From Acidimicrobium ferrooxidans (GTDB lineage: Bacteria > Actinomycetota > Geothermincolia > Fen-727 > Anoxymicrobiaceae), in NCBI GenBank assembly GCA_020723485.1, contig DYIU01000004.1:27057-91056 (forward strand): DNA of 64,000 bases. Reading direction: 5' to 3'. Under the pieces are notes generated by a model. It had not been told where the DNA came from and made no database searches. It saw only the letters and a program-made list of their open reading frames with translations. Shown here piece after piece: positions 4,819-62,940 of the stretch (position 1 is its first letter; each line of letters opens with the position of its first letter). Position numbers and translations under genes: made by a program.

Positions 4819-5352
4819 CTAGTCCTCGAACCGCTCGACCATCTTCTGGTATTTCTCGTGGATGAGTATCCTGTCGAACTCGTCGAACTCGCTGAGCATG
4901 GAGTCCTGCTCCTCCCTGCTGAAGTACTCCTGGCAGGGGAAGAAGAACCGCTTGTCCTCCTTGAATATATGGGCGGGGTAGAACTCCACCAGGTCCCCGA
5001 GCGCCGATATCATCTCCAGGAGGGCGCCGGGCTCGCCGCCGGCGAACCTGTTCCTGGCGTCGACCAGCTGGCCGACCTTGCCCCTGCCGTAAACGTGGTC
5101 GTTCACCAGTTCCTCCATCATGGCCACCAGCTCCGGGGTCATGTCCTTTGCGGCCAGGTCCCTGAACAGGATGTCCTCCTCCTTGCCGTGGTGCGTCCTG
5201 TCGGCGTAGCTCCTGAAGAAATCCACACCTGCATCAACGAGGATGAAGTTCACCTCTTTTTCGGTCTTCATGCGGTCCAGCTCGGCGGCGAGAACCACCA
5301 CCATCCTCTCGATGAGCCTGTGCTCACGCATCAGCGGGCCGATGGGCTTCAT
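4819..5352 (-). CDS. hemerythrin HHE cation-binding domain protein
   Basis: N-terminal PIGPLMREHRLIE plus His/Glu-rich helices typical of hemerythrin-like domain proteins. Confidence 0.65.
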   Translation of the reverse strand: MKPIGPLMREHRLIERMVVVLAAELDRMKTEKEVNFILVDAGVDFFRSYADRTHHGKEEDILFRDLAAKDMTPELVAMMEELVNDHVYGRGKVGQLVDARNRFAGGEPGALLEMISALGDLVEFYPAHIFKEDKRFFFPCQEYFSREEQDSMLSEFDEFDRILIHEKYQKMVERFED

Positions 5353-5394
5353 GCGACATCTCCTCCAGGTCTGATAAGTGCGCTCCCCGGCGGC

Positions 5395-6150
5395 TTATTC
5401 CTTAACGCTGTCCAGCATTCCTGCCGCGCCGGCCATGCCTTCATCGGTGATCCACATCTCGAGCATGGGCTCCCCGCCCGCGATGACGCTCTCGATGCGC
5501 TCTATCGCGCCGCCCCTGACCTGCCTCTTTATCCGGTTATACGGCCCACGGGGCAGGCTCGCCATGTCGGTAGCGACCGCTATCGCGCGTTCGAGCACGT
5601 CGGCGGGTGGGTGCAGCTCGTCGAGGATGCCCCACTCGAGCGCGCGGTCCGGGGTCTGGTTCACGCCGGTCAACAGGAGCCGGCGGAATACCGGGTGGGA
5701 TAGCTCCTGCCGTAGCACCTCCAGTGTCGAGACGGGGAACGGTATGCCGACGCGGGCCTCGGTCACCCCCAGGGGATAGTCGCCCTCGGCTCCCACCCTG
5801 TAGTCGCAGCAGATCATCAGTATGAAGCCCCCCGCGTTGGCGGGGCCGTTGACCGCGGCGACCGTCGGCCGGGGCGCAGCGAAGGTCTCGGTTATGACCT
5901 TGTTCACCAGGTTGATGTACTCATGCTGGCGCTCGACCCCGTAGAACGGGACGGCCTTGAGGTCGAGGCCGGCACAGAAGCACCTCCCGGCCCCGGTCAG
6001 GACTATCGCCCCGATGCTGTCATCCGCATAGAGCTCGGACATCGCCGCGTCCGCTTCCTTCAGTATCTCCAGGTCGATGGCGTTGACCGGCGGCCTGTCC
6101 AGGGTCAGGACCGCCACGGCACCGACGCGTTCCACCCTGATGAATTCCAT
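5395..6150 (-). CDS. enoyl-CoA hydratase/isomerase (crotonase family)
   Basis: VAVLTLDRPPVNAID...GAGRCFCAGLDLK crotonase oxyanion-hole signature. Confidence 0.8.
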   Translation of the reverse strand: MEFIRVERVGAVAVLTLDRPPVNAIDLEILKEADAAMSELYADDSIGAIVLTGAGRCFCAGLDLKAVPFYGVERQHEYINLVNKVITETFAAPRPTVAAVNGPANAGGFILMICCDYRVGAEGDYPLGVTEARVGIPFPVSTLEVLRQELSHPVFRRLLLTGVNQTPDRALEWGILDELHPPADVLERAIAVATDMASLPRGPYNRIKRQVRGGAIERIESVIAGGEPMLEMWITDEGMAGAAGMLDSVKE

Positions 6151-22871: not shown

Positions 22872-22951
22872 CTCGTCGGCTGCAGGTTCGAGTCCAGCGC
22901 CGGGAGATAGGGTGGTTGATGAGCAAGGTGGTGGCTCCCCGGGCAGGACTC
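22872..22951. repeat. direct repeat copy 1 (80 nt) = 57 nt of tRNA-downstream flank plus the last 23 nt of tRNA-Asn (att-like remnant)
   Basis: Identical to 23011..23090, 139 bp to the right. Contains tggtggctccccgggcaggactc, the reverse complement of the tRNA-Asn T-loop/acceptor 3' end, but no complete tRNA. Confidence 0.75.
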
Positions 22952-23010: not shown

Positions 23011-23090
23011 CTCGTCGGCTGCAGGTTCGAGTCCAGCGCCGGGAGATAGGGTGGTTGATGAGCAAGGTGGTGGCTCCCCGGGCAGGACTC
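23011..23090. repeat. direct repeat copy 2 (80 nt), overlapping the 3' end of tRNA-Asn
   Basis: Perfect copy of 22872..22951; its last 23 nt are the genuine 3' end of the tRNA gene. Confidence 0.75.
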
Positions 23091-23146
23091 GAACCTGCAA
23101 CACACTGGTTAACAGCCAGTTGCTCTACCGATTGAGCTACCGGGGA
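23071..23146 (-). tRNA. tRNA-Asn (anticodon GTT), CCA encoded
   Basis: Manual fold of the reverse complement: acceptor UCCCCGG/CCGGGGA, D-arm GCUC-AAUCGGUA-GAGC, anticodon arm ACUGG-CUGUUAA-CCAGU (U33, GUU, A37), variable GUGUU, T-arm GCAGG-UUCGAGU-CCUGC, discriminator G, CCA. Confidence 0.8.
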
Positions 23147-23401: not shown

Positions 23402-23443
23402 CATCCGAGAAAATGCAACAAAACGACCTGACCCCGATTTGCG

Positions 23444-33226: not shown

Positions 33227-33280
33227 CCGGGGTCAGGCCGCGAGTCAAGCCCGGCGGGCTCAACTCGCAGCCTGACCCCC
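33227..33280. repeat. palindromic element E (CCGGGGTCAGG...CCTGACCCC termini) in the dgt-dnaG spacer
   Basis: TIR CCGGGGTCAGGCCGCGAGTCAAGC / GCTCAACTCGCAGCCTGACCCC; the right end overlaps the dgt TAG stop (gaccccCTA) and is followed by TATCCC, as for element A. Confidence 0.55.
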
Positions 33281-34860: not shown

Positions 34861-34882
34861 TCGACCACCTCATATTCCGGCG

Positions 34883-34958
34883 TCACGTCTTATTCTATGA
34901 CCGCGTTGCCACAATCCGGGGCATGCCGGTCGCCCCGGTCATAGAATAAGACGTGACC
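34883..34958. terminator. 22-bp perfect inverted repeat hairpin (GTCACGTCTTATTCTATGACCG / CGGTCATAGAATAAGACGTGAC) with about 32-nt loop between ppdK and the flavoprotein-dgt-dnaG-rpoD operon
   Basis: Arms 34883..34904 and 34937..34958; AT-rich stem core, GC-rich loop; 5 nt downstream of the ppdK stop. Confidence 0.5.
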
Positions 34959-34963
34959 CCCAA

Positions 34964-37696
<2,733 letters not shown>

Positions 37697-41806: not shown

Positions 41807-41920
41807 TCTCTCACCGTCCCTCGGGTATCCCGCCTATTGTATAGTAGTTGGTGGATGGTTTAGAAACGCAACAATGGGGTCAGGTCACATTGTTGCAGAA
41901 ATGCCCGAGGGGGGCCCGCA

Positions 41921-43159
41921 ATGTTTGATTTCATGATGACGGACGCTCAGAAGGAGCTCCAGGAAGAGATGCGCGACTTCGCGCGTTCCATAGACCGCCA
42001 GTACCTGCTCGACATGGACGCGGAGAAGATCCAGTACCCCAAGGAGATACTCGTAGGCGCCGCCGAGCGCGGCCTGCTGGGCCTGCGCTTCCCGAAGGAG
42101 TACGGCGGCAGGGGACTCGGGTGGGTCGAGGAGTGCATAGCCATCGAGGAGATGGCGACCCTCGGCATACCGCCCGCGTGCCTGTACTCGCTGGTCTCCA
42201 TCGTGGGCGAGTGCACGAACGAGTTCGGGACCGAGGAGCAGAAGCAGAAGTACCTCAAGCCCACCTGCGAGGGCAGGCTCTTCTGCTCCGAGGCCCTCAC
42301 CGAGCCGAGGGGAGGCTCGGATTTCTTCGGGGCCACCACAACCGCGAAGAAGGAGGGCGACCACTTCGTCCTCCACGGCCAGAAGAGGTTCATCGTCGGC
42401 GCCGAGGGCGCGGATTACTTCATGGCCTATGCCAAGACCGACCCGGACGCGGCTCCGCGGGACAGCATCTCCTGCTTCCTGGTGGACCGCGACGACGACG
42501 TCGAGGTCAAGCACGTCTACGGCCTCATGGGGGCCCGCGGAGGGGGGACCGGCCGTGTGCTCTTCCGCGACACGAAGGTGCCCGCGGAGAACCTTGTAGG
42601 CGGCGAGAACGAGGGGGGCAGGATATTCTACCGGATGATGGTCCCCGAGCGCCTCACGTCCGCCGCGGGAGCGCTTGGAGGCGCACGCGCCTCACTCGAG
42701 GTCGCGATGCGCTACACGACCAGGCGGAAGGCGTTCGGCGTCCCCATCAAGAACTTCCAGGCCGTCTCATTCAAGGTGTCGGAATCCATCACGCAGCTCG
42801 ACGCGGCCCGGGCGCTGGTTTACGCGACCGCGAGCGCCATCGACAGCGGGAAGGTCCCGGCGGGCCGCCTGCGGCGCATGGTGTCCGAGTCAAAGAAGTT
42901 CGCCACCGAGGCGTCGTGGAGCGTCATCAACCACTGCATGCAGGCGATGGGAGGCATAGCCTACACCAACGTCTATCCCATAGAGCGCGCGCTGCGGGAC
43001 TGCAGGCTCATCATGATCTGGACCGGCACCAACGAGATAATGAACCTCATCATCCAGCACGAGCTCTACAAGGAGATGGCCGACGGCAGGGCCGCCGGCC
43101 GCGACACGGAGTTCGACGCCGCCGAGGCATACAACGACGACGAGAAGATTTACGAATAG
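41921..43159 (+). CDS. acyl-CoA dehydrogenase
   Basis: ACAD N-terminal, middle beta-barrel ([13 protein letters not shown]) and C-terminal helical domains (catalytic-base region IYE at the terminus). Confidence 0.85.
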
Positions 43160-43263
43160 GGTCAGACCACTTTCGTTGCACTGGCCACAACGGTTAACTC
43201 AAACAACATCCGCCGGTGGCGGATGTTGTAGATGTTGTTTATGCAACGAAAGTGGTCTGACCC
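43159..43263. repeat. palindromic element A (105 nt, GGGTCAGACC...GGTCTGACCC termini), bidirectional terminator-like
   Basis: 22-bp perfect terminal stem plus an internal 12-bp hairpin (ACAACATCCGCC/GGCGGATGTTGT). Its ends overlap the TAG stops of both convergent genes by 1 nt each. 90% identical to element B. Confidence 0.7.
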
Positions 43264-44066
43264 TATCCCTCCGGCCAAGGCTGGGTGTTAGCGGGGGGCT
43301 GCAGGTTGAGCTTCTCGTTGAACTTGCTGAGCGTGGTGACCTGGTCGAGCTTGACCCGGTCGCCGGCCTGCGCGTACCCGAGCTTGATGAGGTCTTCGGT
43401 AGCCCTCACGTCGATAGACGCCTTTGACTGCTTCATGTAGTAGTCCTTCTTCCTGATGTAGAAGTCAAAGACCGCCTTGGCGTCGGCCAGCTCGTCGACC
43501 GAACGTATCTGCTGCCCGGTGCCCGGATCCTTCAGGAGGTCGGTTATGCCGGGGAGCTTCACGAGCTCTTTCATGTCGGGCTCGCCGCGGAGGTGGTAAC
43601 AGGCCTCGCCGTCGACGTCCGCGTCGCCCTCTTTCGCGAGCGTCTTGAAGTACTTCAGGTACTGGGACATGGACAAGCTCTGCGTCACGGGGGTGGGCAG
43701 CTGGAACGACTCGGGCATCTCGTACCAGTTACCGCCCAGCTGGATGTAGAGCTTCTCTTCGACCTGCATTGCGGTCACCGGCACGCCCGGCGCAAGCTCG
43801 AGCTCGACCCTCAGGTCGCCGCTCTGCTGGTCGACGTCTCCTGAAGAACTGCTGGTGTAATTCTGCTTCTCTACTTTTCCGTCCTTGAGCGGCGCCCGCG
43901 GAAGCTGCTGCTCGGAGGTGATCTGGAAGTGCAGGGTCTTGATCTTCTCCGAGGCCTTTATGCTGTTCTTCGCGATCTCCTCGGCGCCGGGGCCGCAGCC
44001 CACGATGCTCAGCGACAGCGGTACCAGCAGCGCCGCCAGCACCAGCAGCACAAGCAGCTTCTTCAA
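43263..44066 (-). CDS. putative lipoprotein
   Basis: Signal peptide with lipobox LSIVGC, then a soluble about 240-aa domain. Confidence 0.5.
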   Translation of the reverse strand: MKKLLVLLVLAALLVPLSLSIVGCGPGAEEIAKNSIKASEKIKTLHFQITSEQQLPRAPLKDGKVEKQNYTSSSSGDVDQQSGDLRVELELAPGVPVTAMQVEEKLYIQLGGNWYEMPESFQLPTPVTQSLSMSQYLKYFKTLAKEGDADVDGEACYHLRGEPDMKELVKLPGITDLLKDPGTGQQIRSVDELADAKAVFDFYIRKKDYYMKQSKASIDVRATEDLIKLGYAQAGDRVKLDQVTTLSKFNEKLNLQPPANTQPWPEG

Positions 44067-44265
44067 ATCGCTCTCCTCTCAAGATGTGTATCGACCGCGC
44101 ACATGCGGTCGAACGGCGCGGAATCACCGACTATTATAACGGGTACCGAACCCACCAGATACCCCGCCGCCGCAGGTCTGCGCGGCACCGTTGTAGTAGA
44201 ATACTGCGGGCAGCCGGTCAAACAGCACTGCTCCTTAGACGGTCTGACAGCCGAGCAGGTTCGAA

Positions 44266-46164
44266 ATGGACGGGTACGCCGGAAAGTTCCTGAATCTCAA
44301 TCTCAGCGATGGCAGCGGCAAGGATTTCGTTGTCCCCGAAGAGGTCACCCAGAGGTACCTCGGAGGGAAAGGCATCGGGACCTGGCTGCTGTATAACGGC
44401 CTGGAGCCGCACGCTGACCCCCTGTCCCCGGAGAACGTCCTGGTGATAGCCACGGGGCCCCTCACTGGCGTGGGACTGCCCGCCGTCAATCACGCCGTGG
44501 TCTGCACCAAGTCGCCGCTGACCGGCACTATCACCTGCGCGTCTCTCGGGGGAGACTTCGCCACCCGGCTCAAGTCGTGCGGATACGACGGGTTGATACT
44601 CCGCGGCAGGTCCCCGCGCCCGGTAATAGTGGACGTCACCGAGGGGCGCTGGAAGATACGCGAAGCGGGCAAGCTCTGGGGGCACAACGTCGTCCGCACC
44701 CAGGAGGTCCTCGAGAGCCGCGTCGCGAGCATCCTGTGCATAGGCCCCGCCGGGGAGAACATGGTGCGCTACGCGACCATCGTCTCCGGGGAGCACACGG
44801 CCCAGAGGGGCGGAACTGGCGCGGTGATGGGCTCCAAGCGCCTCAAGGCGCTGAGGGTGGGCGGCGGCTTCGAGACGTCGGTCTTCGACCGGGACAGGCT
44901 CGCCCGCCCGGCGGAGTCGCTGCGCTCCAGGCTCAAAGCCGGTGATTCGTACCCCAGGTATGGGACAGCCGGGAACGTGTCCCTCTCCCAGGAGAAGGGC
45001 GTACTGCCGACCCGCAACTTCACCTTCGGGACCTTCGACCGGCACGTGAAGATAAGCGGCGAAGCGCTACGCTCCCAGATACGCCGCAAGGGGCGGGACT
45101 GCCCGGGGTGCCCGGTCGACTGCACCACCGAGGTCAAGCTCGCCACGAAGACCGGCACGGTCCGCGTCAAGGGCCCGGGCTACCAGCCGCTGGTCATGCT
45201 GGGAAGCAACCTGATGATAGACGACCTGGAGCAGGTGATACGCAACAACTACCTGTGCTATCTGCTCGGGCTGGACCCGGTGAGCACGGGCGGGACCATA
45301 GCGCTCGCCATGGAGCTCTCGGAGAAAGGCAGGATGCACCTGCCCCTGCGGTTCGGCAGCGTGCGCGAGGTGGGCCCTCTCATCCCGCTCATCGCCGAGC
45401 GGAAAGGCCCCGGGAAAGAGCTCGCCGACGGCGCCGCGCGGCTGGTGGAGGTCTACGGTTACAGCGAGCTCTCGATGGCAGTCAAGGGCATGGAGCTGCC
45501 CGGGTACGACCCGAGGGGATGCTGGGGCCAGGGGTTGGCGTACGCCACCTGCCCGGAGGGCGGCAGCCACATAAGCTCGATGATGGCCTCCCCGGAAGTG
45601 CAGGGGAGACCCGCAGCGCTCGCGGGCGCCCGCGCTGCCGGCAAGGTCCAGCTCACCATCTTCGCGCAGAACATGTTCTGCGCGCTCGACTCCCTGGTGA
45701 CCTGCAACCGCGCGACCTACTGCACGCTGGTCGTACCGGCCTGGGTGAAGGGCTTGCCGGGCTGGATGAGAGGCTTCTTCGCGGGCAGGATGCCGGGCTT
45801 CGCGGCGTCGATGCTCGACCTGCGGGACTACTGCCAGGCCCTTTCATTCATCACCGGCGTGAAGTACAGCAGGCATACACTGCTCAGGGTAGGCGAGCGC
45901 GCCTTCAATCTCGAGAGGCTCTTCAACCTCCGCGAAGGCTTCACGAGCAAGGACGACATGCTTCCCCTGCGTTTCGTGGGCGAGCCGCTGAGAGAGGGGC
46001 CGTCGGCCGGCAAGGTGAGCCCGCTCACGAAGATGCTGCTCAAGTACTACCGGTTGAGGGGCTGGAACGACGTGGGCATCCCGACCGAGCAGTTCCTCAA
46101 ACGTCTCTCCATCGACGAACGCCTGGGGTCAGACCACTTTCGTTCCATTGGCCACAGTGGTTAA
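44266..46164 (+). CDS. aldehyde:ferredoxin oxidoreductase family (tungsten-containing) protein
   Basis: N-terminal AOR domain (GGKGIGTWLLY...IATGPLTG...CTKSPLTG), AQRGGTGAVMGSKRLKAL region and C-terminal pterin/4Fe-4S ligands (CPGCPVDC). The last 12 codons plus stop lie inside element B. Confidence 0.85.
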   Translation: MDGYAGKFLNLNLSDGSGKDFVVPEEVTQRYLGGKGIGTWLLYNGLEPHADPLSPENVLVIATGPLTGVGLPAVNHAVVCTKSPLTGTITCASLGGDFATRLKSCGYDGLILRGRSPRPVIVDVTEGRWKIREAGKLWGHNVVRTQEVLESRVASILCIGPAGENMVRYATIVSGEHTAQRGGTGAVMGSKRLKALRVGGGFETSVFDRDRLARPAESLRSRLKAGDSYPRYGTAGNVSLSQEKGVLPTRNFTFGTFDRHVKISGEALRSQIRRKGRDCPGCPVDCTTEVKLATKTGTVRVKGPGYQPLVMLGSNLMIDDLEQVIRNNYLCYLLGLDPVSTGGTIALAMELSEKGRMHLPLRFGSVREVGPLIPLIAERKGPGKELADGAARLVEVYGYSELSMAVKGMELPGYDPRGCWGQGLAYATCPEGGSHISSMMASPEVQGRPAALAGARAAGKVQLTIFAQNMFCALDSLVTCNRATYCTLVVPAWVKGLPGWMRGFFAGRMPGFAASMLDLRDYCQALSFITGVKYSRHTLLRVGERAFNLERLFNLREGFTSKDDMLPLRFVGEPLREGPSAGKVSPLTKMLLKYYRLRGWNDVGIPTEQFLKRLSIDERLGSDHFRSIGHSG

Positions 46165-46229
46165 CACAAACAACATCCGCCGTGGCGGATGTTGAAGATG
46201 TTGCTAATGGAACGAAAGTGGTCTGACCC
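46126..46229. repeat. palindromic element B (104 nt), second copy of the A family
   Basis: 24-25-bp terminal stem; compensatory G:C to C:G change relative to A at stem position 20, plus two changes that convert A mismatches into pairs. Overlaps the AOR 3' end and the uppS stop. Confidence 0.7.
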
Positions 46230-46945
46230 TATATCAGCGCGCCGAACTTACGCGTGCGGCGGTTGTACTCCTCGATGGCCTGCATCAGGTGCTCCCTGCG
46301 GAACTCGGGCCACAGTATCGGTATGAACACCAGCTCGGTGTATGCGAGCTCCCACAGCAGGTAATTGCTCACCCTAACGTCACCCGCGGTGCGTATGAAC
46401 AGGTCGTAGTCGGGGACATCCGGCGCGTAAAGGTGAGCCGCGACGGTATCCTCGTCGATGTCCGCCGGGTCGAGCTCGCCCGCGGCGACCTCGGCGGCGA
46501 TCCTCTTCGCGGCGTCGACCAGCTCCGCGCGGCCTCCGTAGTTGTAGGCCACGTTAAGCTTCATGCCGGTGTTCCCGCCGGTGAGCTCCATCGTCTCGAC
46601 CATCTTGTCCCACAGGAAAGCGGGAAGGCCCTCGCTCCGGCCGATGAACCGTATCATCACGTTCCTCTCGTGGAACTCGTCCACGCGGAGGTCGAGCAGC
46701 TCCTTGTTGAACCTCATGAGGAAGTCGACCTCTTCCTTCGGCCGCTTCCAGTTCTCTGTGGAGAACGCGTACAGCGCCAGGGCCTCCAGCCCGAGGTCGA
46801 TCCCGGCCCTCACCGTGTCGGTTATGGCCTTCTCGCCCTCCCGGTGACCGTCGATGCGGTTCATGCCACGGGTGGTCGCCCACCGCCCGTTGCCGTCCAT
46901 GATGATTGCTATCCTGCCCGGTATCTCCAGCTCCTGCTCCGGCAT
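46229..46945 (-). CDS. uppS: isoprenyl transferase (undecaprenyl diphosphate synthase)
   Basis: IAIIMDGNGRWA...FSTENWKRP cis-prenyltransferase signature. Confidence 0.9.
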   Translation of the reverse strand: MPEQELEIPGRIAIIMDGNGRWATTRGMNRIDGHREGEKAITDTVRAGIDLGLEALALYAFSTENWKRPKEEVDFLMRFNKELLDLRVDEFHERNVMIRFIGRSEGLPAFLWDKMVETMELTGGNTGMKLNVAYNYGGRAELVDAAKRIAAEVAAGELDPADIDEDTVAAHLYAPDVPDYDLFIRTAGDVRVSNYLLWELAYTELVFIPILWPEFRREHLMQAIEEYNRRTRKFGALI

Positions 46946-56619: not shown

Positions 56620-56719
56620 ATGCACACCGGGGTCAGGTCCCTTGTTGCGTTCGCCTCGTGCGCACCGCGAGGCGAGATAAAGATAAAAACGCAACAAGGG
56701 ACCTGACCCCGGTGTGCAT
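56620..56719. repeat. palindromic element C (100 nt) with 32-nt perfect terminal inverted repeats (ATGCACACCGGGGTCAGGTCCCTTGTTGCGTT)
   Basis: Terminal 32-bp stem and internal CGCCTCG...CGAGGCG hairpin. The right end overlaps the ndk TAA stop by 1 nt; lies upstream of the mreB promoter region. Confidence 0.65.
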
Positions 56720-58491: not shown

Positions 58492-58581
58492 TTAAAGCCG
58501 GGGTCAGGCCTGATTTTTTTAAGCCCGCTGCCATATGTTGGGGCCCTGCTCAAATAATCAGGCCTGACCCCGGCTTAAATA
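58492..58581. repeat. palindromic element D (about 90 nt; TTAAAGCCGGGGTCAGGCCTGATT termini)
   Basis: 24-nt near-perfect TIR; fills exactly the gap between the folC start codon and the TetR TAG stop. With element C it brackets the folC-ndk pair. Confidence 0.6.
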
Positions 58582-62839: not shown

Positions 62840-62845
62840 CACGCA

Positions 62846-62940
62846 ACCGGTTCGACCCGGGGCCCTCGCGCCCCGGACCCGGTTTGAGCCGGGGCTCTGC
62901 GGCCCCGGACCCGGTTTGAGCCGGGGCTCTCCAGCCCCGG
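62846..62940. repeat. three tandem about 32-bp units each forming a CCGGGGC-N6-GCCCCGG hairpin
   Basis: Units aaccggttcgaCCCGGGGCcctcgcGCCCCGGac, ccggtttgagCCGGGGCtctgcgGCCCCGGac, ccggtttgagCCGGGGCtctccaGCCCCGGac, between the permease stop and the next gene RBS. Confidence 0.6.

Follow-up and report, generated by a model that had tools for sequence, protein, structure and literature searches.

Palindromes Between Convergent Genes of a Geothermincolia-like Actinobacterium as Probable REPIN-like Dimers of a TIRYT-Associated Repeat

Introduction

What kind of element fills the spacers of two convergent gene pairs, stop codon to stop codon, with nearly the same 105-nt palindrome? The question is raised by a 64,000-nt stretch of DNA (the window) of an assembly labeled Acidimicrobium ferrooxidans (GCA_020723485.1, contig DYIU01000004.1, positions 27,057 to 91,056), in which element A lies between an acyl-CoA dehydrogenase gene (acd) and the gene of a DUF6612 lipoprotein with the lipobox IVGC, and element B lies between an aldehyde:ferredoxin oxidoreductase gene (AOR) and uppS. 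A preliminary description, made from the letters of the window alone, identified these four genes correctly and took paired differences between the two copies as a sign of selection on the folded structure, with a terminator, an mRNA stabilizer, or a mobile MITE (a miniature transposable element with inverted repeats) as candidate roles. Our analyses indicate that A and B belong to a known class of small mobile palindromes and are not a new kind of structured RNA. Based on sequence comparisons, we consider it probable that they are REPIN-like dimers of a repeat associated with a TIRYT, a terminal inverted repeat (TIR)-associated tyrosine transposase of the HUH/Y1 single-strand DNA enzymes related to the IS200 transposase, and that they are non-autonomous and mobilized in trans.

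Results

Elements A and B Are Built from Inverted Copies of One Repeat

Elements A and B are collinear and identical in 95 of 105 aligned columns; the two hairpin repeats of about 90% identity with shared 19-nt termini are present as first described. These termini are the 19-mer GGGTCAGACCACTTTCGTT, of which the window has four occurrences, one per arm, against a chance expectation of 0.03. Each element consists of two inverted units of about 20 nt, (G)GGGTCAGACCACTTTCGTT, placed around a spacer of 50-60 nt that holds a small hairpin of its own; the arms begin with (A/G)GGGTCAGACC and are 22-27 nt long, and in A the perfect inverted repeat reaches 25 nt once the flanking ATA/TAT is included (43156-43180 / 43242-43266). 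On either strand, both elements are predicted to form one long hairpin (dG -65 to -71 kcal/mol, z -11 to -13 vs shuffles), and folding with DNA energy parameters gives the same picture. After the outer stem comes CUAUCCC or CUAUAUC, free of any U-run, and the inner hairpin is terminator-like in a simple scan on one strand only of each copy. The GC content of the elements is 51%, compared with 64.5% for the window.

Assemblers typically break at repeats, and the independently assembled Logan contig SRR13164373_7292, which matches the window at 100% identity, ends where the right arm of B has its inner edge (46202), as expected for a multi-copy repeat. Rfam covariance models gave no match to A or B at gathering thresholds, with only sub-threshold microRNA noise at E <10, and the elements in 18 other loci were likewise without an Rfam match. 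A literature search by sequence string returned only primers and Tn3 or pBR322 sequence. BLAST of element A and of a Massilia-type palindrome against 72,556 plasmids gave no real matches, which argues that the element is not plasmid-borne.

The Same Heads Flank Transposase Genes

The arms and heads found in the window also flank TIRYT genes, in eight loci (L062, L110, L113, L114, L115, L116, L118, and L119). L062, retrieved solely through the 19-mer of the A/B arms, encodes a 234-aa Y1 transposase between copies of that same arm, variants included, in inverted orientation, CAACACCGGGGTCAGACCACTTTC.. / CAACACCGGGGTCAGACCACTT(TC), two upstream (direct) and three downstream (inverted). The TIRYT genes of L113 and L114 are flanked by doubled inverted heads, GGGGTCAGAsCTCC and GGGGTCAGACCACTTTT, respectively, both closely related to the A/B arms. 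In three relatives of this organism (L110, L115, and L119) a Pfam Y1_Tnp gene encoding 282-289 aa is found in the AOR-uppS spacer, the site occupied by B, and its inverted flanking heads, ...GGGGTCAGGTCTA.../...TAGACCTGACCCC..., share GGGGTCAGGTC with a further window palindrome at 56620-56719. In L115 the TIRs (24 nt, TTAACTTTTCGGGGTCAGGTCTAG) extend over both stop codons, and the transposase-flanking heads of L119, like those of L115, overlap or abut both stops. The head of L118, GGGGTCACGTC, matches the window palindrome at 34872, and that of L116, GGTGCCAGGTC, is the head type of a palindrome in L071, a relative at 76% identity.

This arrangement was named TIRtrons/TIRYTs by Di Nocera, De Gregorio & Rocco (2013; PMC3733652), who gave the TIR consensus GGGG[AT][CG]A[CG] (GGGGWSAS) and described TIRs as moderately abundant families organized as dimers or clusters like REPs. 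The left arm of B, GGGGTCAG (46125-46132), is a full match to this consensus, and the other three A/B arms, aGGGTCAG, match 7/8 positions. TIRYTs correspond to TnpA-Y1 subclass 2.1 and to RAYT group 1 of Bertels (Quentin et al. 2018, PMC6006769), the most widely distributed RAYT group, whose flanking 16-mers occur in about 12 copies per replicon (Bertels et al. 2017, PMC5581495). Subclass 2.1 is recognized by the HuH motif NH[YFV]H, FQ/WQ, Y..NP, a C-terminal helix-turn-helix (HTH), and a length of about 240-290 aa (PMC6006769), features that the L110 protein shows. The L110 protein (282 aa) scores 91.4 bits against NCBIfam REP_Tyr_transpos (NF047646, cutoff 80), also matches PF01797, and carries NHYH, LFQGRF (FQ), YVVQNP, and a sigma70-r4-like C-terminal HTH; the L062 protein, with NHVH, WQ, and YIDMNP, is homologous to it (36% identity, E 5e-23). 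Relatives of the L062 protein come from Massilia, Telluria, and other Betaproteobacteria, taxa that also hold GGGGTCAGACCAC palindromes. We further observed that L113 and L114, from a Massilia genome and a Pseudomonadota metagenome-assembled genome (MAG), have their TIRYT gene in one syntenic position, with an Amidohydro_3 gene on one side and an Ada-type regulator gene on the other. This suggests that the transposase unit has long been inherited vertically without leaving its locus.

Orthologous Spacers Turn Over Among Relatives

The gene order glyQS, acd, DUF6612, AOR, uppS, recO is conserved in relatives. Comparison of such orthologous loci, which the preliminary description had put forward as a way to demonstrate mobility, finds the AOR-uppS spacer of relatives without B and holding instead a plain hairpin, another palindrome, or the Y1 unit described above. 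The spacer contains an ordinary 39-nt GC hairpin in L068 and L069 (AOR 86% identical), a small hairpin with GGGGTCAGGCACC in L070 (90% identical), and a GGGGTCGTTCAC palindrome in L111, and it measures 488 nt in L071. The acd-DUF6612 spacer, 106-142 nt long in relatives, holds different palindromes in every lineage (L067-69, L071, L110, and L111). Given the absence of B from relatives and an AOR stop that is the only one overwritten, we conclude that B is a lineage-specific gain and that the spacers turn over. Related genomes in which either a dimer or a full transposase unit occupies the same orthologous spacer are clear cases of this kind.

Two further observations concern these relatives. 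L067 (11864-12660) and L068 (7691-7770) are near-identical assemblies of one relative that differ just after AOR, where a G-rich run, GGCGCGGGCCGGGGGCGGGGGCCGGCGCGGGGGCC, replaces the plain hairpin in L067 and uppS is not called as a gene. A further palindrome of L071 (427-523), whose core ACCTCAGACCA/TGGTCTGAGGT differs from the A/B head by one base, lies between two co-directional genes.

The Elements Supply Stop Codons and a Protein Tail

Each copy had been described as overlapping the stop codons on both of its sides by one nucleotide. This is so for acd (TAG, 43157-43159), the DUF6612 lipoprotein gene (TAG, complement of 43263-43265), and uppS (TAG, complement of 46229-46231), in all of which TAG is made up of a flanking TA and the outermost G of the element, but not for AOR. 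Where B starts, the latter is without a stop codon, and the reading frame continues through CTG GGG TCA GAC ... GGT TAA to end at 46162-46164, 39 nt into B. The last 12 aa of the protein, GSDHFRSIGHSG, are missing from 50/50 of the closest homologues, which end ...DER[LIMVP]. The stops of acd, DUF6612, and uppS fall at the same codon positions in relatives as in the window, and the AOR stop alone has been overwritten. Such elements can therefore rewrite gene ends, through a 12-aa AOR tail and TAG stops, which matters for annotation and for the interpretation of 3' untranslated regions (UTRs).

Two other accounts of these gene ends were considered and dropped. Recoding of the PYLIS or SECIS type at the combination of TAG and hairpin is at odds with stops at native positions and with meaningless read-through products. 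The PSGVGLT tails of other AOR homologues are not element-encoded, given that the TIR of L115 starts only at the TAA stop.

Changes in the Stem Indicate a Maintained Hairpin

The ten differences between A and B comprise one double change, three one-sided changes, and one loop deletion, the remainder lying in the spacer. Pairing of the arms confirms that position 20 is G:C in A and C:G in B, as first reported. The preliminary description counted two further differences that repair mismatches of A in B; the repair is real, but the count is three (C.A to T:A at position 23, T.T to T:A at 24/82, and G.T to G:C at 26/80). A single compensatory pair among 10 differences arises by chance with p about 0.08, a rough estimate, and is weak evidence on its own. 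Over five family members, arm positions 1-19 do not vary and positions 20-23 covary with a single unpaired cell (position 20 being GC/UA/CG and position 22 AU/GC), giving a covariation score of 0.26 vs 0.15 for shuffles and 0.04-0.11 for slid partners. This covariation indicates that the hairpin is maintained, as would be expected if a Y1 enzyme acts on folded single-stranded DNA.

It is nonetheless unsafe to move from covariation to selection acting on a folded RNA, one of the two forms of the structure (RNA or DNA cruciform) named in the preliminary description: compensatory changes on both hairpin sides are common in REPINs (Bertels & Rainey 2011, PMC3116915), and it is as single-stranded DNA, acted on by the transposase, that the REPIN hairpin is believed to be important (PMC3116915). 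A compensated appearance could also come from dimers made of two copies of one repeat variant, and covariation of the arms does not show selection at the RNA level. What looked like a structured RNA is explained in that the hairpin and the paired changes follow from the build of known mobile palindromes.

Sister Palindromes Share the Head and the Position

Among the short-range inverted repeats of the 64 kb, the six strongest are A, B, and the four sister palindromes listed in table 1. Toward its outer end, every arm of the six has GGGGTCA[G/C], which reads aGGGTCAG in three of the four arms of A and B, and a variable stem comes next. All six lie 0-2 nt from, or overlap, a stop codon; each is placed either in the spacer of a convergent gene pair or in the interval from a stop codon to the ribosome-binding site (RBS) or promoter of the next gene. 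The string GGGGTCAG occurs 11 times in the window, nine times within intergenic elements of this type.

Table 1. Positions in the window of elements A and B, their parts, and other features that carry the head
Feature	Position	Strand	Description
Element A	43159..43263	.	105 nt; REPIN-like dimer occupying the acd-DUF6612 spacer from stop codon to stop codon
A left arm	43159..43180	+	Repeat unit GGGTCAGACCACTTTCGTTGCA
A inner 12-bp hairpin and U-rich tail	43203..43229	+	Terminator-like score on the + strand
A right arm	43242..43263	-	Repeat unit, inverted copy
Element B	46126..46229	.	104 nt; 90% identical to A, same orientation, AOR-uppS spacer
B left arm	46126..46152	+	With G at 46125 makes the full head GGGGTCAG
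AOR C-terminal tail encoded by B, with TAA stop	46126..46164	+	Native stop overwritten
B inner hairpin	46171..46194	-	Terminator-like score on the - strand
B right arm	46203..46229	-	Inner edge at 46202, the end of the Logan contig
Sister palindrome	33229..33279	.	Head GGGGTCAGGCC; between convergent stop codons
Sister palindrome	34872..34967	.	Head GGGGTCACGTC; bounded by a gene's stop and the following gene's RBS
Sister palindrome	56620..56719	.	32-nt perfect arms, head GGGGTCAGGTC; overlaps a stop codon
Sister palindrome	58492..58579	.	Head GGGGTCAGGCC; 2 nt from a stop codon
Short hairpin	41866..41900	+	Head GGGGTCAGGTC in the loop; just upstream of acd
Solitary head AAAACGACCTGACCCCGATTT	23416..23440	-	Head at about 23428, near tRNA-Asn

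Two other repeats of the window are of a different kind. An exact 80-nt direct repeat (22872-22951 and 23011-23090, 139-nt spacing) takes in the 3' 20 nt of tRNA-Asn (23071-23146, minus strand) together with a T-arm-like GGTTCGAGTCC fragment on the plus strand, and looks like the attachment-site remains of an integrated element. At 62842-62937 a 32-nt unit (CGGACCCGGTTTGAGCCGGGGCTCT...) with CCGG...CCGG dyads inside it is repeated in tandem, in three copies.

Arms and Heads Are Dispersed Beyond the Window

A metagenome scan for the 19-mer GGGTCAGACCACTTTCGTT returned eight loci. Three of them (L060, L061, and L064) contain full dimers with the same arms of 22-35 nt around unrelated spacers, each with a gene whose TAG stop falls on the head; these three dimers and the four sister palindromes of the window carry the full GGGG[AT][CG]A[CG] motif, and in several family copies TA adjoins the head. 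The repeat is accordingly dispersed and multi-copy and varies in presence between genomes, as seen in two window copies, a contig break at an arm, three metagenome copies, and turnover at orthologous sites. Comparison of the metagenome copies with the window and its relatives by tblastx gave no orthologous flanks, and hence no more pairs of empty and filled sites.

A genome scan for GGGTCAGACCA...TGGTCTGACCC found 57 loci, almost all with one more G ahead of the pattern, in Burkholderiales, Pseudomonas, Isosphaeraceae, Acidobacteriota, Ferruginibacter, Acidimicrobiaceae, and Saccharibacteria, and hairpins with GGGGTCAGACC recur in at least seven phyla. Clustering of open reading frames (ORFs) over the 57 loci revealed no commonly linked gene, as would follow if the dispersed copies are non-autonomous; the link to the transposase surfaced through the syntenic loci and not through ORF clustering of dispersed copies. 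In viral contigs, short GGGGTCAGACC hairpins were found at 30 loci, compared with 0 and 5 for two composition-matched controls. Based on this enrichment and on the preceding G, we rejected the possibility that sharing of an 11-mer across phyla reflects chance among abundant hairpins, and we regard the head as a specific, widely shared signal. It offers a concrete substrate for a first biochemical test of a TIRYT.

The hosts of these hairpins gave rise to several side observations. Eleven IMG/VR contigs with a GC content of about 0.7 (L074, L078-L083, L085, L087, L089, and L100) carry 27-nt hairpins of the form GGGGTCAGACCC(GCA/TGC)GGGTCTGACCCC, which have three tandem heptamers on one side, such as CCTACTC CCTACTC CCTATTC. 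In L081 and L083, both small and high in GC and the only two with ORFs examined, phage-like clusters of head genes carry the hairpins between their terminase, portal, and capsid genes; we read these clusters as alphaproteobacterial gene-transfer-agent clusters. A 50-kb giant-virus MAG (GVMAG-S-404869-41; L077, L084, L091, L096, and L101) has five GGGGTCAGACCCC...GGGGTCTGACCCC hairpins on one contig, which may reflect bacterial contamination of the bin or occurrence of the motif outside bacteria. In an Isosphaeraceae MAG (L020), group II intron D1-D4 domains (Rfam RF02003) were detected at 2432-2574 and 5331-5474 with 98 and 65 bits, one of them about 120 nt from a GGGGTCAGACC palindrome at 5095-5210. 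Class C introns are known to insert after hairpins, and the arrangement in L020 resembles that.

Discussion

A Model for the Origin of A and B

Our model starts from what the sequences show: the identity of the repeats, their head motif, the occurrence of such heads beside TIRYT genes, presence or absence at orthologous sites, and the AOR tail encoded by B. We hypothesize that a TIRYT encoded elsewhere in the genome would recognize the GGGGWSAS head on folded single-stranded DNA, which would be cut and rejoined, and that dimers would in this way be spread or exchanged among gene-end spacers. Because the hairpin would have to be kept for TIRYT action, such a mechanism would explain the paired changes in the two arms. 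Once settled, an element would sit directly after stop codons, where it could supply a TAG stop or a short C-terminal tail, and it would probably also provide the flanking transcripts with a 3'-end hairpin, acting as a terminator or as an exonuclease block. A role of A and B as terminators or mRNA stabilizers is plausible from their position and their inner terminator-like hairpins, and it is compatible with mobility as a secondary, co-opted role.

Several points weigh against this interpretation. Two A/B copies can be counted in the window, and the 64 kb contain no Y1/TIRYT gene; L062, the sole TIRYT found with the exact A/B arm, looks betaproteobacterial by its homologues and not actinobacterial. 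Three of the four A/B arms begin with GGG and not GGGG, B has no TA on its left, and the exact stop-to-stop fit is explained by no known insertion rule. In addition, REP-like hairpins were not found adjoining subclass 2.1 genes (Quentin et al. 2018, PMC6006769), and biochemistry of a TIRYT is reported in neither PMC3733652 nor PMC6006769.

Alternative Explanations

The foremost alternative is that A and B are primarily host-selected RNA structures, bidirectional terminators or 3'-end stabilizers that resemble each other through selection on the fold and not through mobility. Exact placement at gene 3' ends, very stable hairpins on both strands, the terminator-like score of the inner hairpin with its U-rich tail, and the occurrence of paired arm changes all fit this explanation, and REPs reportedly function as 3' UTR regulators in E. 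coli. However, terminators that arose independently would have no reason to possess a common 19-nt arm, or a common 8-nt head that is also seen beside transposase genes; a U-tract is missing from the outer stem, relatives manage at the AOR-uppS site with a plain 39-nt hairpin, and the same class of repeat is also found upstream of start codons and inside operons; we therefore think it rather unlikely that RNA structure is the primary explanation. Insertion and duplication of TA by an IS630/Tc1-mariner-type DDE transposase would make A and B classical MITEs and account for their TAG and CTA ends. Although A has TA on both sides (ATA|GGG...CCC|TAT in the window, the bars marking its edges) and several family copies have TA beside the head, the left side of B is CTG, and TA, being self-complementary, may simply lengthen the palindrome. 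Removal of A and one TA restores neither native stop, and the spacer of relatives is 106-142 nt long; no DDE transposon with GGGTCAGACC ends turned up, in contrast to Y1 genes flanked by them, and the 72,556 plasmids contained no matches. We rejected a DDE origin as very improbable. The mobile element of the preliminary description was thus essentially right, but its class is REP/REPIN-like with a Y1 TIRYT and not a DDE-type MITE.

The Tn3 inverted repeat begins GGGGTCTGAC, and 9/10 of the first bases of the elements agree with it; the same string appears in papers on pET and Tn3 sequences. Derivation from Tn3 as miniature elements (TIMEs) would nevertheless call for a 38-bp inverted repeat ending in TAAG, which is missing, as is a 5-bp direct duplication (GAATA vs TATCC at A, CGCCT vs TATAT at B), and the similarity ends after base 10; we rejected this very improbable origin on these grounds. 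That just two copies lie 3 kb apart in the window might suggest chance similarity or local segmental duplication of one intergenic hairpin, a notion refuted to near certainty by the chance expectation of 0.03 for the arm, the unrelated flanks, the same arms in unrelated metagenome contigs, and the empty orthologous site in relatives.

If A and B are TIRYT-associated dimers, a broader and more tentative proposal can be made. TIRYTs are the largest and most widespread RAYT group and have so far been regarded as not or weakly repeat-associated. They might, with less likelihood than not, sustain REPIN-like populations in many phyla, with each enzyme paired to its own GGGGWSAS repeat and dimers exchanged as cassettes between fixed gene-end heads. 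Cassette exchange, if true, would explain the stop-to-stop fit, the differing palindromes at orthologous spacers, and the element-supplied stops and tails.

Comparison with Known Systems

Intrinsic bidirectional terminators share with A and B the position between convergent genes and a strong hairpin on both strands, but the sequence of A and B is common to unrelated loci and to transposase flanks, and their outer stem is without a U-tract. Correia/NEMIS elements of Neisseria and ERIC are palindromic intergenic repeats of 100-150 nt that are co-transcribed with flanking genes and form long hairpins, with TA at the Correia ends; they differ from A and B in their termini, in having no known Y1 partner, and in the TA duplication of Correia.

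REPINs and REPs of RAYT groups 2 and 3 (PMC3116915; Nunvar et al. 2010, PMC2817692) are closer. Like them, A and B form an inverted doublet that folds into a long hairpin with a less conserved spacer, show compensatory arm changes (the canonical REPIN pattern), and are extragenic with a bias to gene 3' ends. The Y1 transposase is likewise a single-copy, vertically inherited gene flanked by its own repeats, here at AOR-uppS in three relatives and at the Amidohydro_3-Ada site in two Burkholderiales genomes. Unlike REPs, A and B have no GT[AG]G head (there is no GTAG or GTGG at the hairpin foot), their unit forms no clear imperfect hairpin, only a 9-nt dyad, GGTCAGACC, and the transposase belongs to a different clade.

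The TIRtron/TIRYT system agrees with our elements in the head consensus, the inverted repeats around a Y1 gene, the dispersed inverted dimers, the transposase motifs and HTH, and the pairing of each transposase variant with its own repeat variant. The A/B dimers stand apart from it in being long (about 105 nt), with a conserved spacer hairpin and an exact stop-to-stop fit, in the protein tail donated by B, and in a window that does not include the cognate transposase. They also differ in host, a Geothermincolia-like actinobacterium by the names attached to its AOR homologues; the word "Actinobacteria" appears nowhere in the 2013 text (PMC3733652), and our findings extend TIRYT-linked repeats to such an organism.

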